Position numbers and translations under genes: made by a program. Under the pieces are notes generated by a model that saw nothing but the letters and a program-made list of their open reading frames with translations, was not told the DNA's origin and ran no database searches. A DNA stretch of 64,000 nucleotides from Escherichia coli (lineage in GTDB: Bacteria; Pseudomonadota; Gammaproteobacteria; Enterobacterales; Enterobacteriaceae): assembly GCF_002854065.1 (NCBI RefSeq), contig NZ_CP024147.1. One strand, 5' to 3'. Of this stretch, positions 5,794-15,293 are shown one piece after another (position 1 is the first letter of the stretch; the number at the start of each line of letters is the position of its first letter).

Positions 5794-6156
5794 ATGAAAA
5801 CGCTAGCGGTATTCGACCCGGCAATGTGTTGTAGCACCGGTGTCTGCGGTACTGATGTCGATCAGGCTCTGGTTGATTTTTCCGCGGATGTGCAATGGCT
5901 GAAACAACGAGGTGTTCAGGTAGATCGTTTCAATCTGGCACAGCAACCGATGAGCTTTGTCCAGAACGAGAAAGTTAAAGCATTTATTGAGGCTTCTGGT
6001 GCGGAAGGGCTGCCATTACTGTTACTGGATGGCGAAACAGTGATGGCCGGGCGTTATCCGAAACGGGCTGAACTTGCACGGTGGTTTGGAATTCCGCTGG
6101 AGAAAGTAGGATTAGCGCCTTCAGGCTGCTGCGGTGGTAATACTTCTTGTTGTTAA
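5794..6156 (+). CDS. arsD: Arsenic metallochaperone/secondary regulator ArsD
   Basis: MKTLAVFDPAMCCSTGVCG…GCCGGNTSCC; start set at ATG 5794 after RBS TGAGG. Confidence 0.92.
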   Translation: MKTLAVFDPAMCCSTGVCGTDVDQALVDFSADVQWLKQRGVQVDRFNLAQQPMSFVQNEKVKAFIEASGAEGLPLLLLDGETVMAGRYPKRAELARWFGIPLEKVGLAPSGCCGGNTSCC

Positions 6157-6173
6157 GTATGTCAGGAGGACAT

Positions 6174-7925
6174 ATGAAATTCTTACAGAACATCCCCCCT
6201 TATCTGTTTTTTACTGGTAAAGGAGGCGTTGGTAAAACCTCTATTTCCTGCGCCACGGCGATCCGTCTGGCAGAACAGGGTAAACGAGTGCTGCTGGTCA
6301 GTACCGATCCGGCCTCAAACGTAGGCCAGGTCTTTGGCCAGGTTATTGGCAATACTATTCAGCCAATAGCCACTGTTCCTGGATTGTCGGCACTTGAGAT
6401 TGATCCTCAGGCCGCTGCGCAACAGTACCGGGCCAGAATCGTTGACCCTATTAAAGGTGTCCTGCCTGATGACGTCGTTAGCAGCATCAACGAACAACTG
6501 TCTGGTGCATGCACAACAGAGATTGCGGCTTTTGATGAGTTTACCGGATTACTGACAGACGCCTCTTTGCTGACCCAGTTTGACCATATCATCTTTGATA
6601 CCGCGCCAACCGGCCATACTATTCGCCTTCTCCAGTTGCCAGGCGCCTGGAGCAGCTTTATTGACAGCAATCCCGAGGGCGCATCCTGCCTCGGCCCGAT
6701 GGCGGGGCTGGAAAAACAGCGTGAACAGTATGCCCATGCCGTTGAAGCACTGTCCGACCCAGCGCGTACCCGCCTGGTTTTAGTTGCCAGACTGCAAAAA
6801 TCCACCCTGCAAGAAGTCGCCCGAACTCATTTAGAACTCGCCGCAATTGGCCTTAAAAATCAGTACTTGGTCATTAATGGCGTTCTGCCCAAAACTGAAG
6901 CGGCAAACGATACACTGGCTGCGGCTATATGGGACCGTGAACAGGAGGCGCTGGCCAATCTTCCTTCTGACCTTTCCGGTCTGCCAACTGACACGTTATT
7001 CCTCCAACCACTCAATATGGTCGGCGTGGCTGCATTAAGTGGGCTTCTCTCCTCTCAGCCTGAGGCAGCATCATCTTCTGAAGAATACATTCAGCAACGA
7101 CCTGAAATTCCGTCGCTCTCAGCGTTAGTCGATGATATTGCCCGTAACGAACATGGTCTGATAATGCTAATGGGCAAAGGCGGTGTGGGGAAAACCACGA
7201 TGGCGGCAGCCATTGCCGTCAGACTGGCCGAAATGGGATTTGATGTCCATCTGACCACCTCAGATCCAGCAGCACACCTCAGCACAACCCTGAACGGTAG
7301 CCTTAACAATCTGCAGGTCAGTAGAATCGATCCTCACGAGGAAACAGAACGCTATCGTCAGCATGTTCTTGATACCAAGGGTGGAGAACTGGATGAAGCG
7401 GGTAAACGCCTGCTGGAAGAAGATTTACGCTCTCCTTGTACCGAAGAGATTGCGGTCTTCCAGGCCTTTTCACGGGTGATTCGTGAAGCGGGTAAGCGCT
7501 TCGTGGTCATGGATACGGCACCCACCGGGCATACCCTACTGCTGCTGGATGCCACCGGGGCGTATCACCGCGAAATTGCTAAGAAAATGGGCGATAAAGG
7601 CCATTTCACCACGCCAATGATGCAGCTTCAGGACCCGGAGCGAACCAAAGTGTTACTGGTCACGCTGCCGGAAACCACGCCCGTGCTTGAGGCGGCAAAT
7701 TTGCAGGCCGACCTTGAACGCGCAGGGATTCATCCCTGGGGCTGGATTATCAATAACAGCCTTTCCATTGCGGATACCCGTTCGCCGCTGCTTCGTCTGC
7801 GGGCGCAACAGGAACTTCCGCAGATCGAGAGTGTTAAACTCCAGCATGCCAGTCGCGTAGCTCTTGTTCCTGTACTGGCGTCAGAACCGACCGGCATCGA
7901 CAAACTCAAACAACTCGCTGGTTAA
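6174..7925 (+). CDS. arsA: Arsenite-translocating ATPase ArsA (two nucleotide-binding domains)
   Basis: Two GKGGVGKT P-loops and two DTAPTGHT motifs; start at MKFLQN after RBS AGGAGG. Confidence 0.92.
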
Positions 7926-7972
7926 TTATTGTCATTACTCGGGGCAGCTTTGCTGCCCTTTCGGGAGGTTAT

Positions 7973-9262
7973 ATGTTACTGGCAGGAGCCATTTTTATCC
8001 TGACCATCGTGTTGGTTATCTGGCAGCCAAAGGGATTAGGCATTGGCTGGAGCGCCACGCTGGGTGCCGTACTGGCTCTGGCATCGGGTGTGATTCATAT
8101 CGCCGATATTCCGGTGGTGTGGAATATCGTCTGGAACGCCACGGCCACCTTTATTGCCGTCATTATCATCAGTCTGTTGCTGGATGAGTCCGGCTTTTTT
8201 GAATGGGCTGCACTGCACGTTTCCCGCTGGGGCAATGGGCGTGGACGTCTGCTATTTACCTATATTGTTCTGCTCGGCGCGGCGGTGGCGGCATTGTTTG
8301 CCAACGATGGCGCGGCGTTAATTCTGACGCCGATCGTTATCGCCATGCTACTGGCGCTGGGATTCAGTAAAAGCACCACGCTGGCTTTCGTGATGGCCGC
8401 AGGGTTTATTGCCGATACCGCCAGCTTGCCACTTATCGTATCGAACCTGGTCAATATCGTTTCGGCTGATTTCTTCAAACTGGGATTCACGGAGTATGCG
8501 TCAGTTATGGTGCCGGTGGATATTGCCGCCATTGTCGCCACGCTGGTGATGCTGCATCTTTTTTTCCGCAAAGATATCCCGCCCACTTATGAGCTGGCGC
8601 GACTGAAAGAACCCGCAAAAGCCATCAAAGATCCTGCGACGTTCAGAACCGGCTGGGTTGTGCTCCTCCTTCTGCTGGTCGGTTTTTTTGTCCTTGAGCC
8701 GATGGGGATCCCTGTGAGTGCGATTGCGGCAGTGGGGGCGGCAATCCTGTTTGCGGTGGCCAAAAAAGGTCATGGTATTAACACCGGTAAAGTGCTGCGC
8801 GGCGCGCCCTGGCAGATCGTGATCTTCTCACTGGGGATGTATCTGGTGGTATACGGGTTGCGTAACGCCGGTCTGACGGATTATCTCTCTGACGTGCTGA
8901 ACGTACTGGCAGATAAAGGACTGTGGGCCGCGACGCTGGGGACAGGATTCCTGACTGCATTCCTCTCTTCTATCATGAACAATATGCCGACCGTACTGGT
9001 TGGCGCACTGTCGATTGATGGCAGCACCGCGACCGGCGTTATCAAAGAAGCGATGATTTATGCCAACGTCATTGGCTGCGATCTGGGGCCGAAAATCACC
9101 CCTATTGGTAGCCTGGCGACACTGCTCTGGCTGCACGTGCTTTCACAGAAGAATATGACAATCTCGTGGGGATACTACTTCCGCACCGGGATTATCATGA
9201 CCCTGCCTGTGCTGTTTGTAACGCTGGCTGCGCTGGCGCTACGTCTCTCTGTCACTTTGTAA
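7973..9262 (+). CDS. arsB: Arsenite/antimonite efflux permease ArsB
   Basis: 429-aa polytopic membrane protein, C-terminus …[12 protein letters not shown] as in ArsB. Confidence 0.92.
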
Positions 9263-9274
9263 TGAGATTCTGAT

Positions 9275-9700
9275 ATGAGCAACATCACTATTTATCACAA
9301 CCCAGCCTGCGGCACCTCGCGTAATACGCTGGAGATGATCCGCAACAGCGGTACCGAGCCGACCATTATTCTTTACCTTGAGAACCCACCTTCGAGGGAT
9401 GAATTGGTCAAACTCATTGCCGATATGGGTATTTCAGTACGAGCGCTGCTGCGTAAAAACGTTGAGCCTTACGAGCAACTGGGTCTTGCAGAAGATAAAT
9501 TTACTGACGATCAGCTCATCGACTTTATGTTGCAACACCCAATTCTGATTAACCGTCCGATCGTGGTTACGCCGCTGGGAACCAGACTGTGCCGTCCTTC
9601 TGAAGTGGTTCTGGATATCCTGCAGGATGCGCAGAAAGGGGCTTTCGCTAAGGAAGACGGTGAAAAGGTCGTTGATGAAGCAGGAAAACGGCTGAAATAA
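9275..9700 (+). CDS. arsC: Glutaredoxin-dependent arsenate reductase ArsC
   Basis: 141 aa, HNPACGTSRNT catalytic Cys motif. Confidence 0.92.
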   Translation: MSNITIYHNPACGTSRNTLEMIRNSGTEPTIILYLENPPSRDELVKLIADMGISVRALLRKNVEPYEQLGLAEDKFTDDQLIDFMLQHPILINRPIVVTPLGTRLCRPSEVVLDILQDAQKGAFAKEDGEKVVDEAGKRLK

Positions 9701-9702
9701 AT

Positions 9703-9728
9703 AATAAGGGGGCGAATGCCCCCTTATT
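9703..9728. terminator. Hairpin AATAAGGGGGC-GAAT-GCCCCCTTATT between convergent arsC and GNAT gene (bidirectional terminator candidate)
   Basis: GC-rich 8-bp stem with flanking A/T runs. Confidence 0.6.
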
Positions 9729-9734
9729 CGTACC

Positions 9735-10271
9735 TCAGAGCATCATGCCTGAATCCGATGGTAACGTGCTGTTCCCTTCGCCCAGATTTCGTTGCAGCAA
9801 CACTGTGTCAAGCCAACGACCATGCTTGAAGCCAATATTTTTCAGCGTACCAATCTCAGTAAATCCAACCTGCTGATGGACTTTCAGCGAACCTTGATTA
9901 TTGCTATCGCCGACAATAGCAATCATCTGCCGATAGCCGTGAGTTTCTGCCCAGGCAATGACGTAGCGCAGCAACGCTTTTCCTGTCCCCTGACGCTGTG
10001 CGTCCGGGTGAATATAAATCGAATCTTCGAGAGTGTGGCGGTAGGCGTAGCGTTCACGGTAACGAGTGAGATAACAATACCCGATAACCTTTTCTTCCTC
10101 TAACGCGACAACCCACGGTAGCGCCTGATTGCGGATCTTTTTCAGGCGGGTAAGCATCTCGTGGGTATCCGGAGGTTCAGTTTCAAAGCTGGCGGTACCG
10201 TGAAGAACATGATGGGCGTAGATATCGCGTATAGCGGGGATGTGCTTTTCTTCTGCGTTAACGATTTTCAT
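9735..10271 (-). CDS. GNAT acetyltransferase of the phosphinothricin-acetyltransferase family (ArsN1-like arsinothricin N-acetyltransferase candidate)
   Basis: 178 aa; resembles E. coli MnaT/PAT proteins (…IYAHHVLHGTASFETEPP…YIHPDAQRQGTGKALL…); positioned in an ars island. Confidence 0.7.
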   Translation of the reverse strand: MKIVNAEEKHIPAIRDIYAHHVLHGTASFETEPPDTHEMLTRLKKIRNQALPWVVALEEEKVIGYCYLTRYRERYAYRHTLEDSIYIHPDAQRQGTGKALLRYVIAWAETHGYRQMIAIVGDSNNQGSLKVHQQVGFTEIGTLKNIGFKHGRWLDTVLLQRNLGEGNSTLPSDSGMML

Positions 10272-10435
10272 TGTTCTGTTCCCGTTGGCATCTTTTTCAA
10301 GGTTACTTGAAAATCCTGAGGAAAGGTAAATACAAAAGCTTATGACCCAATAAGCAGGCTAATCTTCAATCCCATCTTTTGTTTTCATTCATGCAGGGAG
10401 ACAAATATGTGCTTCCAGTATCCTTATTTTTTATG

Positions 10436-10479
10436 TTACCTTTTCCGTTATGTCTAAAATGACATAACGGAAAAGGTAA
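10436..10479. promoter_or_regulatory. 44-bp perfect palindrome (19-bp arms TTACCTTTTCCGTTATGTC / GACATAACGGAAAAGGTAA, 6-bp spacer) ending 4 nt before the tauE-like start codon
   Basis: Seen directly; right arm contains the putative RBS AAAGG. Confidence 0.5.
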
Positions 10480-10483
10480 ACCC

Positions 10484-11308
10484 ATGTCCTCAGAATCAAA
10501 ACGGAACGGAAAAGGTTTTTTATCAGGCACGTTAATCGGTGCTTTAGGCGGCTTAATTGGCCTCGGTGGCGCTGAGTTCCGCCTTCCCGTCCTGATGGGT
10601 AGTTTCAAAATGCCGACGCTTGAAGCGGTTATTTTTAACAAAGCGATGAGCCTTACTGTTGTCGCTGTTGCTTTGATATTCCGCACAAAATCCATCGCCG
10701 TCGACCAGCTGTTTGCTCATCTTGATATTGTCATCAATTTGCTGGCCGGGAGCCTTATAGGTGCATGGTGGGCAGCAGGAAGAGCCATAAAAATGTCCCG
10801 TATTTGGCTGGACAGAACCATTCTGCTCCTGCTTGTTATCCTGTCATTCGTCATGTTTTCAGAAGCATTGATGCCTCTGCATGATAGCTCCGCTGGATTA
10901 TTCCAGCCCGGAATCGCGACCATTATTGCGGGTGTTATTGCGGGTGTTATTGCGGGTTTCTTCATCGGGAATGTTGCTGCTTTGCTGGGTGTTGCAGGGG
11001 GAGAGCTCCTGATACCAACTATCGTTATCCTTTTTGGGGCTGACATTAAACTGGCTGGCAGTTTGTCACTCATGATCAGTTTACCGACGATGATTGTGGG
11101 GTTCTCTCGCTACACTAATGCAGATGCTTTCCAGATCCTGAGAAAAGAGAAAAAACTTTTTGTGTGGATGGTCATCGGTTCCGTTATAGGTGCCGCTATT
11201 GGGGGCCTTATGCTCGGTATGTTCCCGGTAAGAGTACTTATGACTCTGTTAGGCGCGGTACTTCTTATTTCCGCGATCAAAACCTTTAAGCATACCCGGC
11301 AAAGATAA
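10484..11308 (+). CDS. TauE/SafE (TSUP/DUF81) family anion exporter-like membrane protein
   Basis: 274 aa, two glycine-rich hydrophobic halves (GALGGLIGLGGAEFRLP…; …GVAGGELLIPTIVILFG). Confidence 0.7.
   Translation: MSSESKRNGKGFLSGTLIGALGGLIGLGGAEFRLPVLMGSFKMPTLEAVIFNKAMSLTVVAVALIFRTKSIAVDQLFAHLDIVINLLAGSLIGAWWAAGRAIKMSRIWLDRTILLLLVILSFVMFSEALMPLHDSSAGLFQPGIATIIAGVIAGVIAGFFIGNVAALLGVAGGELLIPTIVILFGADIKLAGSLSLMISLPTMIVGFSRYTNADAFQILRKEKKLFVWMVIGSVIGAAIGGLMLGMFPVRVLMTLLGAVLLISAIKTFKHTRQR
10925..10960 (+). repeat. 12-bp tandem repeat ATTGCGGGTGTT x3 (last copy degenerate) inside the tauE-like gene, encoding (IAGV)2-IAGF
   Basis: Seen directly. Confidence 0.6.
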
Positions 11309-11370: not shown

Positions 11371-11739
11371 ATGAAAAAGAATCCCCTTAAATCAAACTTA
11401 ATCTTAGTCAGACCGAGGATCTATATTAACGACAACATCTCGCTGGGGCCGGGGAAGGTTGACCTTTTAAGGGCGATTGATGGCTTTCACTCTCTTTCTG
11501 CGGCAGCTAAAGATTTGGGGATACCTTATAAAAAAGCATGGCTCTTAATTGACACTTTGAATAAAGGGATTGGTCAGCCAGTTGTAACCACTTCCACTGG
11601 TGGTAACAAGGGCGGTGGTACAGTTCTGACGCCATTGGGGCGTAGCCTGCTGATCTGGTATGACCAGGCCGAGGCCCACCTCAATGAGCAATCTCAGCAA
11701 CAGTTAATCGAACTTGAAAAGATTCTTTTTGGAAAATGA
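11371..11739 (+). CDS. ModE N-terminal-domain-like winged-helix regulator (single domain, no Mop/TOBE domains)
   Basis: 122 aa; …AAKDLGIPYKKAWLLIDTLNKGIGQPVVTTSTGGNKGGGTVLTPLGRSLLIWY resembles ModE N-terminal HTH with the GG(K)GGGG loop. Confidence 0.6.
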   Translation: MKKNPLKSNLILVRPRIYINDNISLGPGKVDLLRAIDGFHSLSAAAKDLGIPYKKAWLLIDTLNKGIGQPVVTTSTGGNKGGGTVLTPLGRSLLIWYDQAEAHLNEQSQQQLIELEKILFGK

Positions 11740-11812: not shown

Positions 11813-13570
11813 TTACTTCGCCATTTCTTCCAGCAGGTCAATACCAACCGGCTCTTCGCTCTGTAGCGCTGTTAATGCAATACGCTTTGCATACTGCTCT
11901 TCCACATCAGAGATGAGAGGCAGCTCGCGGTTAGCTCTGGTCTTCAGGAAAGGTGAAGACGGCTCAGCAGCTGCCAGGCTGTTATTCACAACCCATGCCC
12001 ACGGCTCAATGCCAGCCCGACGCAGATCCTGCTGCAGGTTAGCGGCTTCCAGTACAGGTGTCGTTTCGGCAAGCGTCACGATAATCACCTTCGTCTTCTC
12101 CGGGTCCTGCAATTGCATCATTGGCGTCATCACATGGTCATGTGTTTGCCCCATCTGGCGCACCATTTCCCGGTGATAGGCTCCAGTCGCATCCAGTAGC
12201 AGAAGTGTGTGACCCGTTGGCGCGGTGTCCATAATGACAAAATGATCGTCTGCCTCTTTGATTATCCGCGAGAATGCCTGGAAGACGGCGATCTCTTCAG
12301 TACATGGTGAGCGGAGATCTTCTTCCAGCACCGCCAGCCCCTCAGCGTCTAATCCTTTGCCCTGATTCTCCAGTACAAAACGGCGATAACGCTCTGTCTC
12401 CACCTTCGGATCGATACGGCTGACCTGCAGATTTGGCAGCGAGCCATCCAGCGTGTAAGACAGATGTGCTGCCGGATCGGACGTGGTCAGATGGACTTTA
12501 TGACCGCGTTTTGCCAGCGATACCGCGACCGATGCTGCAACAGTCGTTTTGCCCACGCCGCCTTTCCCCATCGTCATTACCAGCCCTTTGCCTGTCAGAC
12601 TGAGTTCATCCACTAACGAGGAAAGTTTCGGTAAATCCAGAGCATTTAGCGTTGTATTGGAGAGAGACAGTGGCGCTTTGCTCTCTGTTAATAACTCTCG
12701 CAGGGCTTCCAGACCGACCAGATTAAATGGCTTCAGAGACAGCTGCGAGCGGGGAAGATTAACCAGATTATCAGGCATTGCCTGTAATGCTTTTTCTTCC
12801 CGAGCCAGAATACTTTGCGCCAGTGGATCATTTTCACCGGCAAACGGTGGCAGCACACCATTAATGGCAAGGTGTTGATGCTGCAAACCAATAGCAGAAA
12901 GCTCATCGTGCGTATGAGAAACCTCTTTCAGCGTTGAAGCCTGAGCTCGGGCAACCAGCACTAAGCGTGTGAGAGCTGCGTCGGACAGCGCTTTAACCGC
13001 ATCGGAGTACTGGTGCTGTTGTTTCTCAAGCCCTACCAGAGGTCCAAGGTTTGCAGCGGCATCAGGGTTCGCTTCGAGATAACCGCTCCAGGCTCCCGGC
13101 AATTCAAGCATGCGGATGGTGTGACCGGTTGGCGCGGTATCAAATACGATATGGTCATATTTTCCCCGCAGCTCATGATTGGTCAGCAGACCAGTAAACT
13201 CATCAAACGCAGCGATTTCCGTGGTGCATGAGCCGGAAAGCTGCTCTTCAATGCTGCTGACCACATCGGCTGGCATCAGCCCGCGAACAGGGTCGAGCAC
13301 ACGGTCACGATAGGCTTGCGCTGCAGCCATCGGATCAACTTCCATCGCGGCAAGATTTTCTACAGTACTGATATCTGTGATTCGGTGGCCGATAGTCTGG
13401 CTAAATACCTGGCCGACATTGGAAGCCGGATCGGTACTCACCAGAAGCGTTCTCTTACCCTGATCGGCCAGCCATACTGCAGTAGCACAGGCCAGGGATG
13501 TCTTACCCACTCCACCTTTACCAGTGAAGAAGATGAACGGGGGAATGTCTTTTAAAAATGGCATATTCAT
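11813..13570 (-). CDS. arsA: Second arsenite-stimulated ATPase ArsA (divergent paralogue)
   Basis: Two GKGGVGKT / DTAPTGHT sets; start MNMPFLKD with RBS GAGGAG. Confidence 0.85.
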   Translation of the reverse strand: MNMPFLKDIPPFIFFTGKGGVGKTSLACATAVWLADQGKRTLLVSTDPASNVGQVFSQTIGHRITDISTVENLAAMEVDPMAAAQAYRDRVLDPVRGLMPADVVSSIEEQLSGSCTTEIAAFDEFTGLLTNHELRGKYDHIVFDTAPTGHTIRMLELPGAWSGYLEANPDAAANLGPLVGLEKQQHQYSDAVKALSDAALTRLVLVARAQASTLKEVSHTHDELSAIGLQHQHLAINGVLPPFAGENDPLAQSILAREEKALQAMPDNLVNLPRSQLSLKPFNLVGLEALRELLTESKAPLSLSNTTLNALDLPKLSSLVDELSLTGKGLVMTMGKGGVGKTTVAASVAVSLAKRGHKVHLTTSDPAAHLSYTLDGSLPNLQVSRIDPKVETERYRRFVLENQGKGLDAEGLAVLEEDLRSPCTEEIAVFQAFSRIIKEADDHFVIMDTAPTGHTLLLLDATGAYHREMVRQMGQTHDHVMTPMMQLQDPEKTKVIIVTLAETTPVLEAANLQQDLRRAGIEPWAWVVNNSLAAAEPSSPFLKTRANRELPLISDVEEQYAKRIALTALQSEEPVGIDLLEEMAK

Positions 13571-13590
13571 CAGTGATAGCTCCTCTGGAA

Positions 13591-13953
13591 TTAAGGCATA
13601 CGTGGAATGCTGCAGCAACGCGGTTGCGTACTGTCTTCACTCCAGTCCTGAGTTAGCGGAATATCTGCCCAACGGGCGATATCTTCACGAGTCGGCAGTT
13701 TGCCTGCCATCACCAGCTTGCCGTCGAGCAAGGTGACAGGGAGGGATTCCATCCCTGATGTGTTCATAAACTCTTTGATTACAGGGGTATTCAGGAACTG
13801 CTGCGGGTTTTTCGCAAGGCTGTAGCGCTGAATATCAACGCCATTCTTTTTCGCCCATTCGGCGCTGGCATTCCATTTGACGGCTTCGTCGCTCACCACA
13901 ACGCTGCTGGTTGCGCAGCAGCCTGCTGCTTCAAAGATCTCAATTTTTGACAT
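13591..13953 (-). CDS. arsD: ArsD-like metallochaperone (divergent; only the N-terminal CC pair conserved)
   Basis: 120 aa, MSKIEIFEAAGCCATS…, immediately upstream of arsA2. Confidence 0.7.
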   Translation of the reverse strand: MSKIEIFEAAGCCATSSVVVSDEAVKWNASAEWAKKNGVDIQRYSLAKNPQQFLNTPVIKEFMNTSGMESLPVTLLDGKLVMAGKLPTREDIARWADIPLTQDWSEDSTQPRCCSIPRMP

Positions 13954-14028
13954 GGATTGTTTACCTCAGTGTTTAGTCATTTGGCTTTACACTGAGGTAA
14001 ACGAAGGTGGTGGGAAAAAGATGCGCGA

Positions 14029-14574
14029 TTAATTCATTTTTTTGTGGCAGCAGACAAAAGATGTGTCATCCGCCTCAATCTGGCAGAGTTCTGTCATCGT
14101 CTCTTTCAGGTGTTTTCTGGCCCGAAGTAGTCGGGATTTAAACGCTGTAAGCGTGATTCCCCATTCATCGGCCAGGGACTGCTGGGGACGCCGGTTAAGG
14201 TCGGACTCTTCAATCAACCACCGCTCATCTTCGGGTAAAGCCTGTAATGTTTCAGGCAGGCAAATATCCAGTGTTGAGATTGCATCAAGGGATGCGTCTG
14301 TTAATAGGGCATCTTCTTCCAGCTCAACAAACGCCCTGGTGGTTCGGTACTCATCAATCAGCAGATTCCTTGCTACCCGATACAACCAGGCTCGCGGATT
14401 TTCCATCTCACAAAAAATGTCTGAATGGGCTCGGGCACGCAGGAAAAGGTCTTGCAGAAGGTCTGCTGCTTTTTCGCTATCGCCTGTCTTCGATATCAGA
14501 AAGCGAGAAAATTCGCCTTCATGCTGCCGCCAGAACACGCTCATACAGCTGTTGAATGCTGTTATGTCACTCAT
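14029..14574 (-). CDS. ECF (sigma-70 family, group IV) sigma factor with C-terminal Cys-containing tail (…ELCQIEADDTSFVCCHKKMN)
   Basis: Region 2 (…NPRAWLYRVARNLLIDEYR) and region 4 (…SLADEWGITLTAFKSRLLRARKHL) motifs; ATG 14574 with RBS GAAGG overlapping arsH stop codon. Confidence 0.75.
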   Translation of the reverse strand: MSDITAFNSCMSVFWRQHEGEFSRFLISKTGDSEKAADLLQDLFLRARAHSDIFCEMENPRAWLYRVARNLLIDEYRTTRAFVELEEDALLTDASLDAISTLDICLPETLQALPEDERWLIEESDLNRRPQQSLADEWGITLTAFKSRLLRARKHLKETMTELCQIEADDTSFVCCHKKMN

Positions 14575-14582
14575 ACTAACCT

Positions 14583-15293
14583 TCAAATTTTGCTCTGATT
14601 AACCCGTCGGGAAAGTTCTTCTGCAGACTCTTTTCGTTCACTGTAGCGATCGACAAGATAGGCAGAATTTGCCCGGGTCAACAATGTAAACTTCATCAAT
14701 TCTTCCATCACATCCACGATGCGGTCGTAATATGGTGACGGTTTCATACGTCCATCGTCATCAAACTCCTGCCAGGCTTTTGCTACCGAGGACTGGTTCG
14801 GAATAGTGATCATTCTCATCCAACGACCAAGCACGCGCATCTGGTTGACTGTGTTGAATGACTGGGAACCTCCACACACTTGCATAACAGCCAGAGTTTT
14901 TCCCTGAGAAGGACGAACAGCACCTTCAGATAATGGTATCCAGTCAATTTGTGCCTTCATAATACCAGTCATCGCTCCGTGTCGTTCCGGAGAGCACCAC
15001 ACCATTCCTTCAGACCAGCGGACCAGTTCACGCAACTCCATAACTTTTGGATGTGACTCCGGTGCATCATCAGGAAGTGGAAGGCCAGATGGATTAAAAA
15101 TGCGGACTTCTGCGCCCATCGCAGTTAACAACCGACCAGCTTCCTCTGTCGCCAGTCGACTGTATGAGCGCTCACGAACTGAGCCATAAAGCATTAGTAT
15201 ACGAGGGGGGTGAGATATTGTCGGTATCCCCATTTTTTGCTCAGTTATTGCAGCATCAAATAAATCAGGAACTATATTATTTAGCTTATTCAT
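14583..15293 (-). CDS. arsH: ArsH, NADPH-dependent FMN reductase (organoarsenical oxidase)
   Basis: 236 aa; …[18 protein letters not shown]… flavodoxin-like motif typical of ArsH. Confidence 0.85.

Follow-up and report, generated by a model that had tools for sequence, protein, structure and literature searches.

A probable ModE-type operator with lineage-specific extended arms before a tauE-like gene in an Escherichia coli arsenic-resistance island

The DNA considered here is a stretch of 64,000 nucleotides (nt) from Escherichia coli (contig NZ_CP024147.1, assembly GCF_002854065.1), referred to below in its full length as the window, in which a long inverted repeat ends just before the start codon of a gene for a TauE/SafE-type permease that is followed by a gene for a short ModE-like protein. 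With high probability, the inner 24 bp of this repeat (10446-10469) are a ModE-type operator, or 'Mo-box', lying on the promoter of the tauE-short modE operon. The element falls into the class of ModE operators, its extension, confined to one lineage, being unusual; binding of the regulator to the inner 24 bp is predicted from sequence. This reading draws on the sequence, its conservation, its co-occurrence with ModE-like genes, homologies and folding energies; binding, repression, the transcription start site and a molybdenum/tungsten (Mo/W) signal are its predicted parts. The features that the argument needs are as follows.

10434-10442, + strand: predicted extended -10 element TGtTACCTT (TG at 10434-35, hexamer at 10437-42), ending 3 nt before the box
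10436-10454, + strand: left arm of the repeat, TTACCTTTTCCGTTATGTC, whose outer part (10436-10445) overlaps the predicted -10 element
10446-10469, no strand assigned: core ModE-type box, CGTTATGTC-TAAAAT-GACATAACG, two 9-bp half-sites with a 6-bp A/T-rich spacer
10461-10479, + strand: right arm of the repeat, GACATAACGGAAAAGGTAA, whose outer part (10470-10479) holds the Shine-Dalgarno (SD) sequence AAGG (10473-10476)
10484-11308, + strand: TauE/SafE (TSUP) permease, 274 aa (PF01925, E 7.6e-25), putative first gene of the regulated operon
11371-11739, + strand: stand-alone ModE N-domain protein, 122 aa, with a winged helix-turn-helix (HTH) and dimerisation region and no Mop/TOBE; presumed cognate repressor

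The repeat has two arms of 19 nt each (10436-10454 and 10461-10479) with 100% complementarity around the spacer TAAAAT (10455-10460), and the right arm, ending at 10479, is followed by ACCC and then by the tauE ATG at 10484, a gap of 4 nt, all of which agrees with an earlier note on this DNA. The same note had called the element a 44-bp perfect palindrome, a term that suits the arms, which are perfect, and not the whole, since the 6-nt spacer is non-symmetric and the element is strictly an inverted repeat. Its observation that the only purine-rich candidate for a ribosome-binding site (RBS) lies in the right arm stands; this is AAGG, 7 nt before the ATG. Among the perfect hairpins of the window the 19-bp arms are the longest, and as the runner-up has 14 bp and 30 first-order Markov simulations gave maximum arms of 8-12 bp, a chance origin is excluded. 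The ModE-type box occurs once in the window. A REP-like repeated or mobile element was considered and rejected, the 24-bp box being unique in the window and a 12-mer of the outer right arm (AACGGAAAAGGT) recurring only as a direct copy within the TauE coding region (10505-10516, + strand, encoding ..NGKG..) and as a 12-mer with one mismatch at 17744. A weak, degenerate ModE-box-like match (CGTTAAATACTGAGTTAAATACCG) at 48320-48343, inside a 465-aa minus-strand open reading frame (ORF), is within chance expectation and probably due to chance.

Conservation of the core was followed in an alignment of the segment from ATG-60 to ATG+2 of 18 variants of the module. The half-sites CGTTATGTC and GACATAACG are identical in 15 of them, which is every variant with intact half-sites, and the plasmid variants L002, L003 and L005 have one half-site substitution each. 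Identical half-sites persist in the Tn3-type lineage, at ~74% DNA identity and a TauE identity of 82-86%, where the outer arms are non-complementary. The length of the spacer is fixed at 6 nt and its sequence varies, remaining A/T-rich (TAAAAT, AAAAAT, AAAAAA, TTTTTT, AAGAAT and others). When base pairs were counted, none of the nine core pairs switched pair type; six are invariant and the other three deviate solely by a G-U pair or a mismatch, each in a single variant. The tenth pair (10445/10470) does covary (C-G in seven, T-A in seven), as do several outer pairs, but these are unpaired in the Tn3-type lineage. Because sequence and spacer length are fixed and spacer sequence is variable, the core is taken to be a protein-binding site and not an RNA stem. 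Two other roles were tried for this segment and rejected: the spacer TAAAAT as a -10 element, as a general feature, since other variants have TTTTTT, AAAAAA, AAAAAG or GTTTTT in its place, and a Tn3 res site, since the box is retained where the resolvase is absent.

The core also resembles known ModE operators. It retains the CG, TAT and T positions and the N6 spacer of the published E. coli ModE consensus, ATCGnTATATA-N6-TATATAnCGAT (PMC545781), and the left half of a predicted Geobacter site, ATCGTTATgTc, is the same as the half-site found here (PMC545781). The E. coli modA operator itself (tCGTTATATTgtcgccTACATAACG; tCGTTATATTgtcgccTACATAACGttacat), which is present in 5391 of 5426 E. coli genomes and ends 14 nt before the modA ATG, is identical to the core at 15 of 18 half-site positions and has a spacer of the same length. 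Both are inverted repeats with a CG-n-TAT..T half-site and a 6-bp spacer, both lie directly upstream of the first gene's start codon and overlap a promoter (here a predicted one), and both go with a regulator that has a homologous winged-HTH N-domain (39% identity). They differ in the innermost bases, which are GTC/GAC here instead of ATT/TAC; in the regulator, which is here an N-domain only (122 aa) without the di-Mop molybdate sensor; in the target, here a TSUP permease on a mobile element; and in the arms, whose extension to 19 bp in the ars-island lineage takes in the -10 element and the SD. The single-domain ModE proteins of Desulfovibrio and Desulfotalea are similar in being stand-alone DNA-binding domains, encoded beside molybdate-transport genes, for which comparative genomics predicts palindromic boxes, but their predicted box, CGGTCACG-N14-CGTGACCG, is of another sequence and spacing, the present box being of the E. 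coli/Geobacter type (PMC545781). Palindromic ModE-family boxes also repress the mod and anfA promoters of Rhodobacter capsulatus through MopA and MopB, which unlike the present protein are full-length regulators with Mop domains (PMC6925177).

The 122-aa protein encoded downstream of tauE matches PDB 2IJL (E 8e-17) and E. coli ModE 1B9M (E 1.4e-10), aligns only to ModE residues 16-102 (with the structure match over 16-95) and has the helix-turn-helix motif AKD.GI.YK.AW in common with the E. coli ModE N-domain. Against TIGR00637 it scores 77.9 bits (E 4.9e-22) over profile positions 2-86 of 100, the curated cutoff being 98.5, and against the full-length ModE profile NF007957 (PRK10676) it reaches 51.5 bits, the cutoff being 369; a Pfam search of the protein gave no TOBE match. 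Given the missing TOBE, the partial alignment and the NF007957 score under cutoff, it is classed as a short ModE-N-like protein and not as a ModE equivalog. It is 55% identical to a short ModE beside a Burkholderia mod operon. A ModE-like repressor without a metal-binding domain is functional in Campylobacter jejuni, namely Cj1507c (Taveirne et al. 2009, summarised in PMC3417520), a ModE-family protein that lacks the metal domain, has a coiled-coil-like tail and represses Mo/W transport operons. Its operator and targets (modABC, tupABC) are different. Short ModE-N regulators of this kind would have to sense Mo/W via a partner, such as a separate Mop/TOBE protein or, through a heterodimer, the host ModE.

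A wider survey points in the same direction. The exact 18 specified bases were sought, with gene context ignored, in contigs of one genome per species (3x10^11 bases) and in metagenomes, and were found at 26 species-representative genome loci, where ~4 are expected by chance, and at 93 metagenome loci, making 119. ModE-N-like genes near the box were identified by an iterated hidden Markov model search of six-frame ORFs, on contigs of which many end early, and 52 of the 119 loci have such a gene at most 1 kb from the box, the usual distance being 50-250 bp. Not one of the 55 ModE-N-like ORFs so found has a TOBE domain, and they usually end 10-30 aa past the DNA-binding domain. Further neighbours of the box are Mo/W genes, namely those for a di-TOBE molbindin, ModA/TupA-type binding proteins, aldehyde:ferredoxin oxidoreductase and formate dehydrogenase, and also an FmdE-MoCF fusion and TonB-dependent receptors. 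From this survey of loci it follows that the box goes with short ModE-like regulators that lack a sensor domain and form a widespread family, and that its usual place is next to the regulator's own gene. Arm length was compared over 35 distinct non-enteric sites, all next to short ModE genes, and runs from 9 to 14 bp (median 9), so the long arms of the window lie outside the family's operator, and the sole flank preference over these sites is for A-T before CG, as in the E. coli consensus. The outer arms as an extended operator were rejected on the same lengths, and because invariant flank positions occur on the left side only.

Two groups of boxes with GC-rich spacers were seen in the course of this survey. 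Metagenome loci L086, L093-L095, L101-L103, L122, L054, L082 and L121 have the same half-sites with self-complementary spacers (GAATTC, GATATC, GAGCTC) within a much longer palindrome, ataattcgg..gacataagcgg CGTTATGTC GAATTC GACATAACG ccgcttatgtc..ccgaattat, and no ModE-like gene nearby; at one of the loci lacking such a neighbour, the perfect arms reach 59 bp. These long palindromes are a different element from the ModE box. In L036, L050, L096, L097, L106 and L111, GC-rich-spacer boxes stand ~20 nt upstream of a small ORF starting MKSQE, and in those long enough to tell (L036, L050, L096, L097, L111) a ModE-N-like gene follows ~250 bp downstream, an arrangement that is another conserved layout of the short-ModE family.

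The box is predicted to lie on a promoter. TG, T-12, A-11 and T-7 (TGnTAnnnT) are invariant in 18/18 variants, while neighbouring bases vary, which is the predicted signature of an extended -10 element, and a Burkholderia mod promoter has an equal layout (TATGCT hexamer, 3 nt, box). Because the extended -10 element ends 3 nt before the box, the start is predicted at ~10449-10450, inside the left half-site, and the operon's own transcript would then be without the 5' arm. In variants that have no GNAT insertion, a terminator-like hairpin (ATGAAAGGGC..GCCCTTTCAT plus a T-run) follows arsC (L004, 3943-3972; L027, ~919-948), from which it can be argued that tauE has its own promoter within the last ~100 nt.

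In the model proposed here, the 122-aa ModE N-domain protein, whose gene lies 0.9 kb downstream, would bind both half-sites as a dimer, and host full-length ModE-molybdate may bind the box too. As the box covers the predicted start, bound repressor would block initiation, and the regulator would in this way repress its own operon. ModE at modABC occludes initiation in a like arrangement. The extra 9-10 bp per arm would be an ars-island add-on outside the operator, pairing the -10 region with the SD, and could silence translation only of transcripts entering from upstream. The earlier note had proposed a dimeric operator for the ModE-like protein; judged by conservation, by the match to the ModE consensus and modA operator and by co-occurrence, that proposal probably holds for the inner 9-10 bp of each arm and does not extend to the outer arms.

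The genes that the box would control have relatives in molybdate transport. TauE forms a tight family, and homologues of ~65% identity are found inside molybdate-type ABC operons of Methylomonas, Burkholderia and an Azospirillum-like contig (L132-L134, 4001-4804 in each), where the order is a modA-like substrate-binding protein gene, tauE, the permease gene and a gene for an ATPase with TOBE (modA-tauE-modB-modC). In Burkholderia a box matching at 17 of 18 positions (CGTTATGTCatttttGACTTAACG) stands between the short modE and modA. The metagenome contig L056 (operon region 5837-9753) has Tn3 tnpA, a resolvase gene and then box-tauE-short modE-modA-modB-modC(TOBE), and together with the modA-tauE-modB-modC operons it indicates that the ars-island tauE-modE pair is the first two genes of a mobile mod-type operon. 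Under the model, the operon of the window would thus be the front end of a molybdate/tungstate-type box-tauE-modE-modA-modB-modC unit that has lodged in an arsenic-resistance island. The pair moves as such: it is found right after arsC where GNAT is absent, after a SulP/USP pair, and after a resolvase gene in Tn3-like elements on Klebsiella, Citrobacter and Serratia plasmids, and, as 'sulfite exporter' plus 'winged-HTH/LysR', it recurs in arsenic islands of enterobacteria and on resistance plasmids, with 287 plasmid records and 26 of 5426 complete E. coli genomes.

These contexts support the view that the target of the box belongs to Mo/W transport genes, with the substrate of TauE suggested by gene context, and the regulatory signal is likely to be molybdate/tungstate status rather than arsenic. 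Arsenate, which the earlier note had included among possible ligands, is thus disfavoured by context, and the regulator has no Mop/TOBE domain. Literature searches found no description of TauE/TSUP permeases in mod or ars contexts, nor of the transposon-borne form. The recurrent 'sulfite exporter' and 'winged-HTH/LysR' pair may accordingly be re-annotated as the front end of a mobile Mo/W-type transport operon with a ModE-type switch, and a TSUP permease subfamily is tied to mod operons. For the widespread sensor-less short ModE family a near-invariant box, aT-CGTTATGTC-N6-GACATAACG-At, is defined, and the question of how Mo/W is sensed becomes testable in E. coli, where host ModE may cross-regulate horizontally acquired genes. 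These by-products, i.e. the short-ModE box, TSUP in mod operons and a transposon-borne mod operon with its front end in arsenic islands, may outweigh the palindrome itself.

A number of observations weigh against the operator reading. Some exact-motif loci with GC-rich spacers sit in unrelated long palindromes, and the 18 bases are thus not exclusive to ModE systems. The 122-aa protein falls under the NCBIfam ModE repressor-domain cutoff (77.9 against 98.5 bits) and has no ligand-binding domain. The -35 sequence of the proposed promoter is poor (TTCCAG), and a simple promoter scan missed this promoter; the scan's sole match, with 0.6 expected by chance, is at 10285-10314 (+ strand; TTGGCA, 18 nt, GAAAAT), beside the GNAT start, and a start from there would give tauE a leader with the whole hairpin. 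This promoter-like match is missing in variants without the GNAT insertion. Lastly, the operator model leaves unexplained why the outer arms have stayed perfectly complementary through several compensatory changes.

The outer arms are complementary only in the ars-island lineage. Perfect arms measure 23 bp in L027 (Atlantibacter) and L089, 19 bp in the window and L004, 18 bp in L085 and 16 bp in L009; they are broken in L002, L003 and L005, and in all 10 variants of the Tn3 type they have 10 bp. On the left the outer arm coincides with the -10 region and on the right with the SD, TACCTT and AAGGTA being reverse complements. The outer arms come in no fewer than four symmetric forms (CCTTTTC/GAAAAGG, CCTTTCC/GGAAAGG, CTTTTCC/GGAAAAG and TCTTTTC/GAAAAGA), with double changes in four pairs. 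The folding energy calculation suggested in the earlier note bears out a very stable structure, the RNA of 10400-10540 folding at -40.7 kcal/mol where shuffled sequences give -23.9 +/- 3.4 (z = -4.9). In RNA that enters from upstream, the probability that the SD is unpaired is 0.01 for the window and 0.00-0.02 for the long-arm variants, and in RNA from the predicted +1 it is 0.67 for the window and 0.44-0.86 for the perfect-arm variants except L009 (0.20). For Tn3-type variants it is roughly 0.3-0.7 either way, and the SD of L005 is also open, so that SD pairing is not conserved among homologous leaders. A distinct fold is found in L031 (Citrobacter sp. NCU1, ~130-200), where the SD AAAGAGGAA has its complement in TTCCTCTTT, located 16 nt ahead of the box, and is unpaired at 0.07 by way of this asymmetrically placed anti-SD, as opposed to the symmetric arms of the ars islands.

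Thermodynamically, then, the RBS-sequestering stem that the earlier note had envisaged is borne out provided that the left arm is transcribed, but as translational control it is not conserved, and in the operon's own transcript it would probably not form, the predicted start lying inside the left half-site and the 5' arm being missing. Compared with known RBS-sequestering hairpins, such as RNA thermometers and riboswitch platforms, the window and its close relatives are alike in that transcription of the 5' arm leaves no part of the SD unpaired. They are unlike in having no aptamer or known family, in a perfect 19-bp stem that is far too stable for physiological melting, in SD pairing that is not conserved across lineages and in a transcript of their own that is predicted to start inside the stem. 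An Rfam 15 E-value search of 10200-10700 gave only generic hairpin (miRNA-model) matches, at 14-25 bits where gathering thresholds are 50-230, and within that segment no Moco riboswitch and no known RNA family. The direct copy of the outer right arm at 10505-10516 could alternatively pair with the left arm. All variants retain it as coding sequence, with no covariation between it and the arms; it probably has no part in the mechanism, though it may record the way in which the arms came to be extended. An alternative pairing of the left arm with this copy as a switch was rejected on those two grounds and because the pairing is broken in L004 and in the Tn3-type lineage.

Three readings of the outer arms come into question, namely a read-through filter, neutral palindrome-templated upkeep and some DNA-level effect. 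It is quite conceivable, if somewhat short of the expected case, that they are neutral: the operator palindrome would have been extended and kept symmetric by intrastrand template switching in replication (quasi-palindrome correction), with compensatory changes that are single mutational events and an overlap with the RBS that is incidental. Mutation by templated correction of quasi-palindromes is well established in E. coli, and such an origin agrees with an extension limited to one lineage, with symmetry kept even at the SD's cost (AAGGTA to AAAGTA in L089) and with the imperfect, decaying versions that are widespread on plasmids (L002, L003, L005). It leaves unexplained the coincidence of perfect arms with co-oriented upstream genes and the independent anti-SD of L031. 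Long perfect palindromes are, besides, normally unstable, so that arms of 16-23 bp persisting in several genera are a hint of some benefit. Rather less likely, in our estimation, is that a transcript-origin filter has been added to the operator, by which mRNAs entering from upstream are silent and those from the own promoter, which would lack the 5' arm, are translated. The contrast in SD accessibility between read-through RNA (0.00-0.02) and RNA from the predicted +1 (0.67 in the window) is as such a filter would have it, as are the at least four symmetric versions of the outer arms with double changes in four pairs, and L031 hides its SD (0.07) with another anti-SD. Furthermore, where the upstream gene is co-oriented the arms are perfect over 16 bp or more (five variants of five), and where it is divergent they are broken in three variants of four; these are nine related, non-independent sequences, for which a one-sided Fisher test gives ~0.05. 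Set against this, the Tn3-type lineage has a co-oriented upstream gene (resolvase) and yet 10-bp arms and a free SD, the terminator-like hairpin after arsC in L004 and L027 would leave less need for a filter, DNA-palindrome covariation can arise without selection, and the start site is a predicted one. The bolder proposition, that one DNA element serves as both protein operator and RNA insulator, with the -10 as 5' arm and the SD as 3' arm of a transcript-origin filter, appears a little more doubtful again; if true, the design would suit a cassette that lands downstream of foreign operons.

Other explanations concern the core itself. The box might be read only by host full-length ModE-molybdate, the short protein being inactive, a dominant-negative partner or the regulator of something else, and the 15/18 identity of the core with the host modA operator and the absence of a Mop/TOBE with which the short protein could sense molybdate would both fit. 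We consider this distinctly improbable, however, in view of the tight linkage of the exact box to short ModE-N genes (52 loci, many phyla), the joint travel of box and gene on plasmids, transposons and islands, and the C. jejuni repressor that functions without a metal-binding domain (PMC3417520). Primary control at the RNA level, with an own mRNA that carries the whole 19-bp stem and is opened by temperature, a factor or a ligand, seems more improbable still. The stem is very stable and covers the SD, and a transcript from the only promoter-scan match would include it; but that match is within chance and absent from variants without the GNAT insertion, the SD is unpaired in the Tn3-type lineage and L005, the core is conserved as sequence and not just as pairing, and the same box stands before divergent genes in other phyla without the hairpin-RBS geometry, to which may be added the absence of an Rfam family match for 10200-10700 and of an obvious route by which a perfect 19-bp stem would open. 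We give hardly any credence to the hairpin as an intrinsic terminator or mRNA-stabilising 3' stem-loop of the upstream gene. A stable stem does lie downstream of arsC in the ancestral arrangement, but there is no U-tract on either strand, the stem being followed by AACCCAUG, a scan of 10150-10650 found no terminator-like site, L004 and L027 already have a separate terminator-like hairpin with a T-run after arsC, and the upstream neighbour in the window is divergent.

The window matches the chromosome of E. coli CUWW06 at 100% identity. The surroundings of the operon in it are those of an arsenic-resistance island, which comprises arsR-D-A-B-C, an ArsN1-like GNAT gene (minus strand), tauE and the gene for the 122-aa winged-HTH protein, and continues on the minus strand with a second arsA/arsD, a sigma-70-family factor, arsH and arsR, after which come a permease gene and an integrase gene. 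The GNAT acetyltransferase (9735-10271, minus strand) resembles the arsinothricin-resistance protein ArsN1b, at 145 bits where the cutoff is 210; its gene is an insertion of opposite orientation that separates arsC from the TauE promoter, and it is absent from L004, L009, L027 and L085, in which arsC is directly upstream. Further along, at 11813-15293 on the minus strand, the second arsA/arsD is followed by an ECF-like sigma-70-family gene (14029-14586) and arsH, a sigma factor being unusual in an ars cluster.

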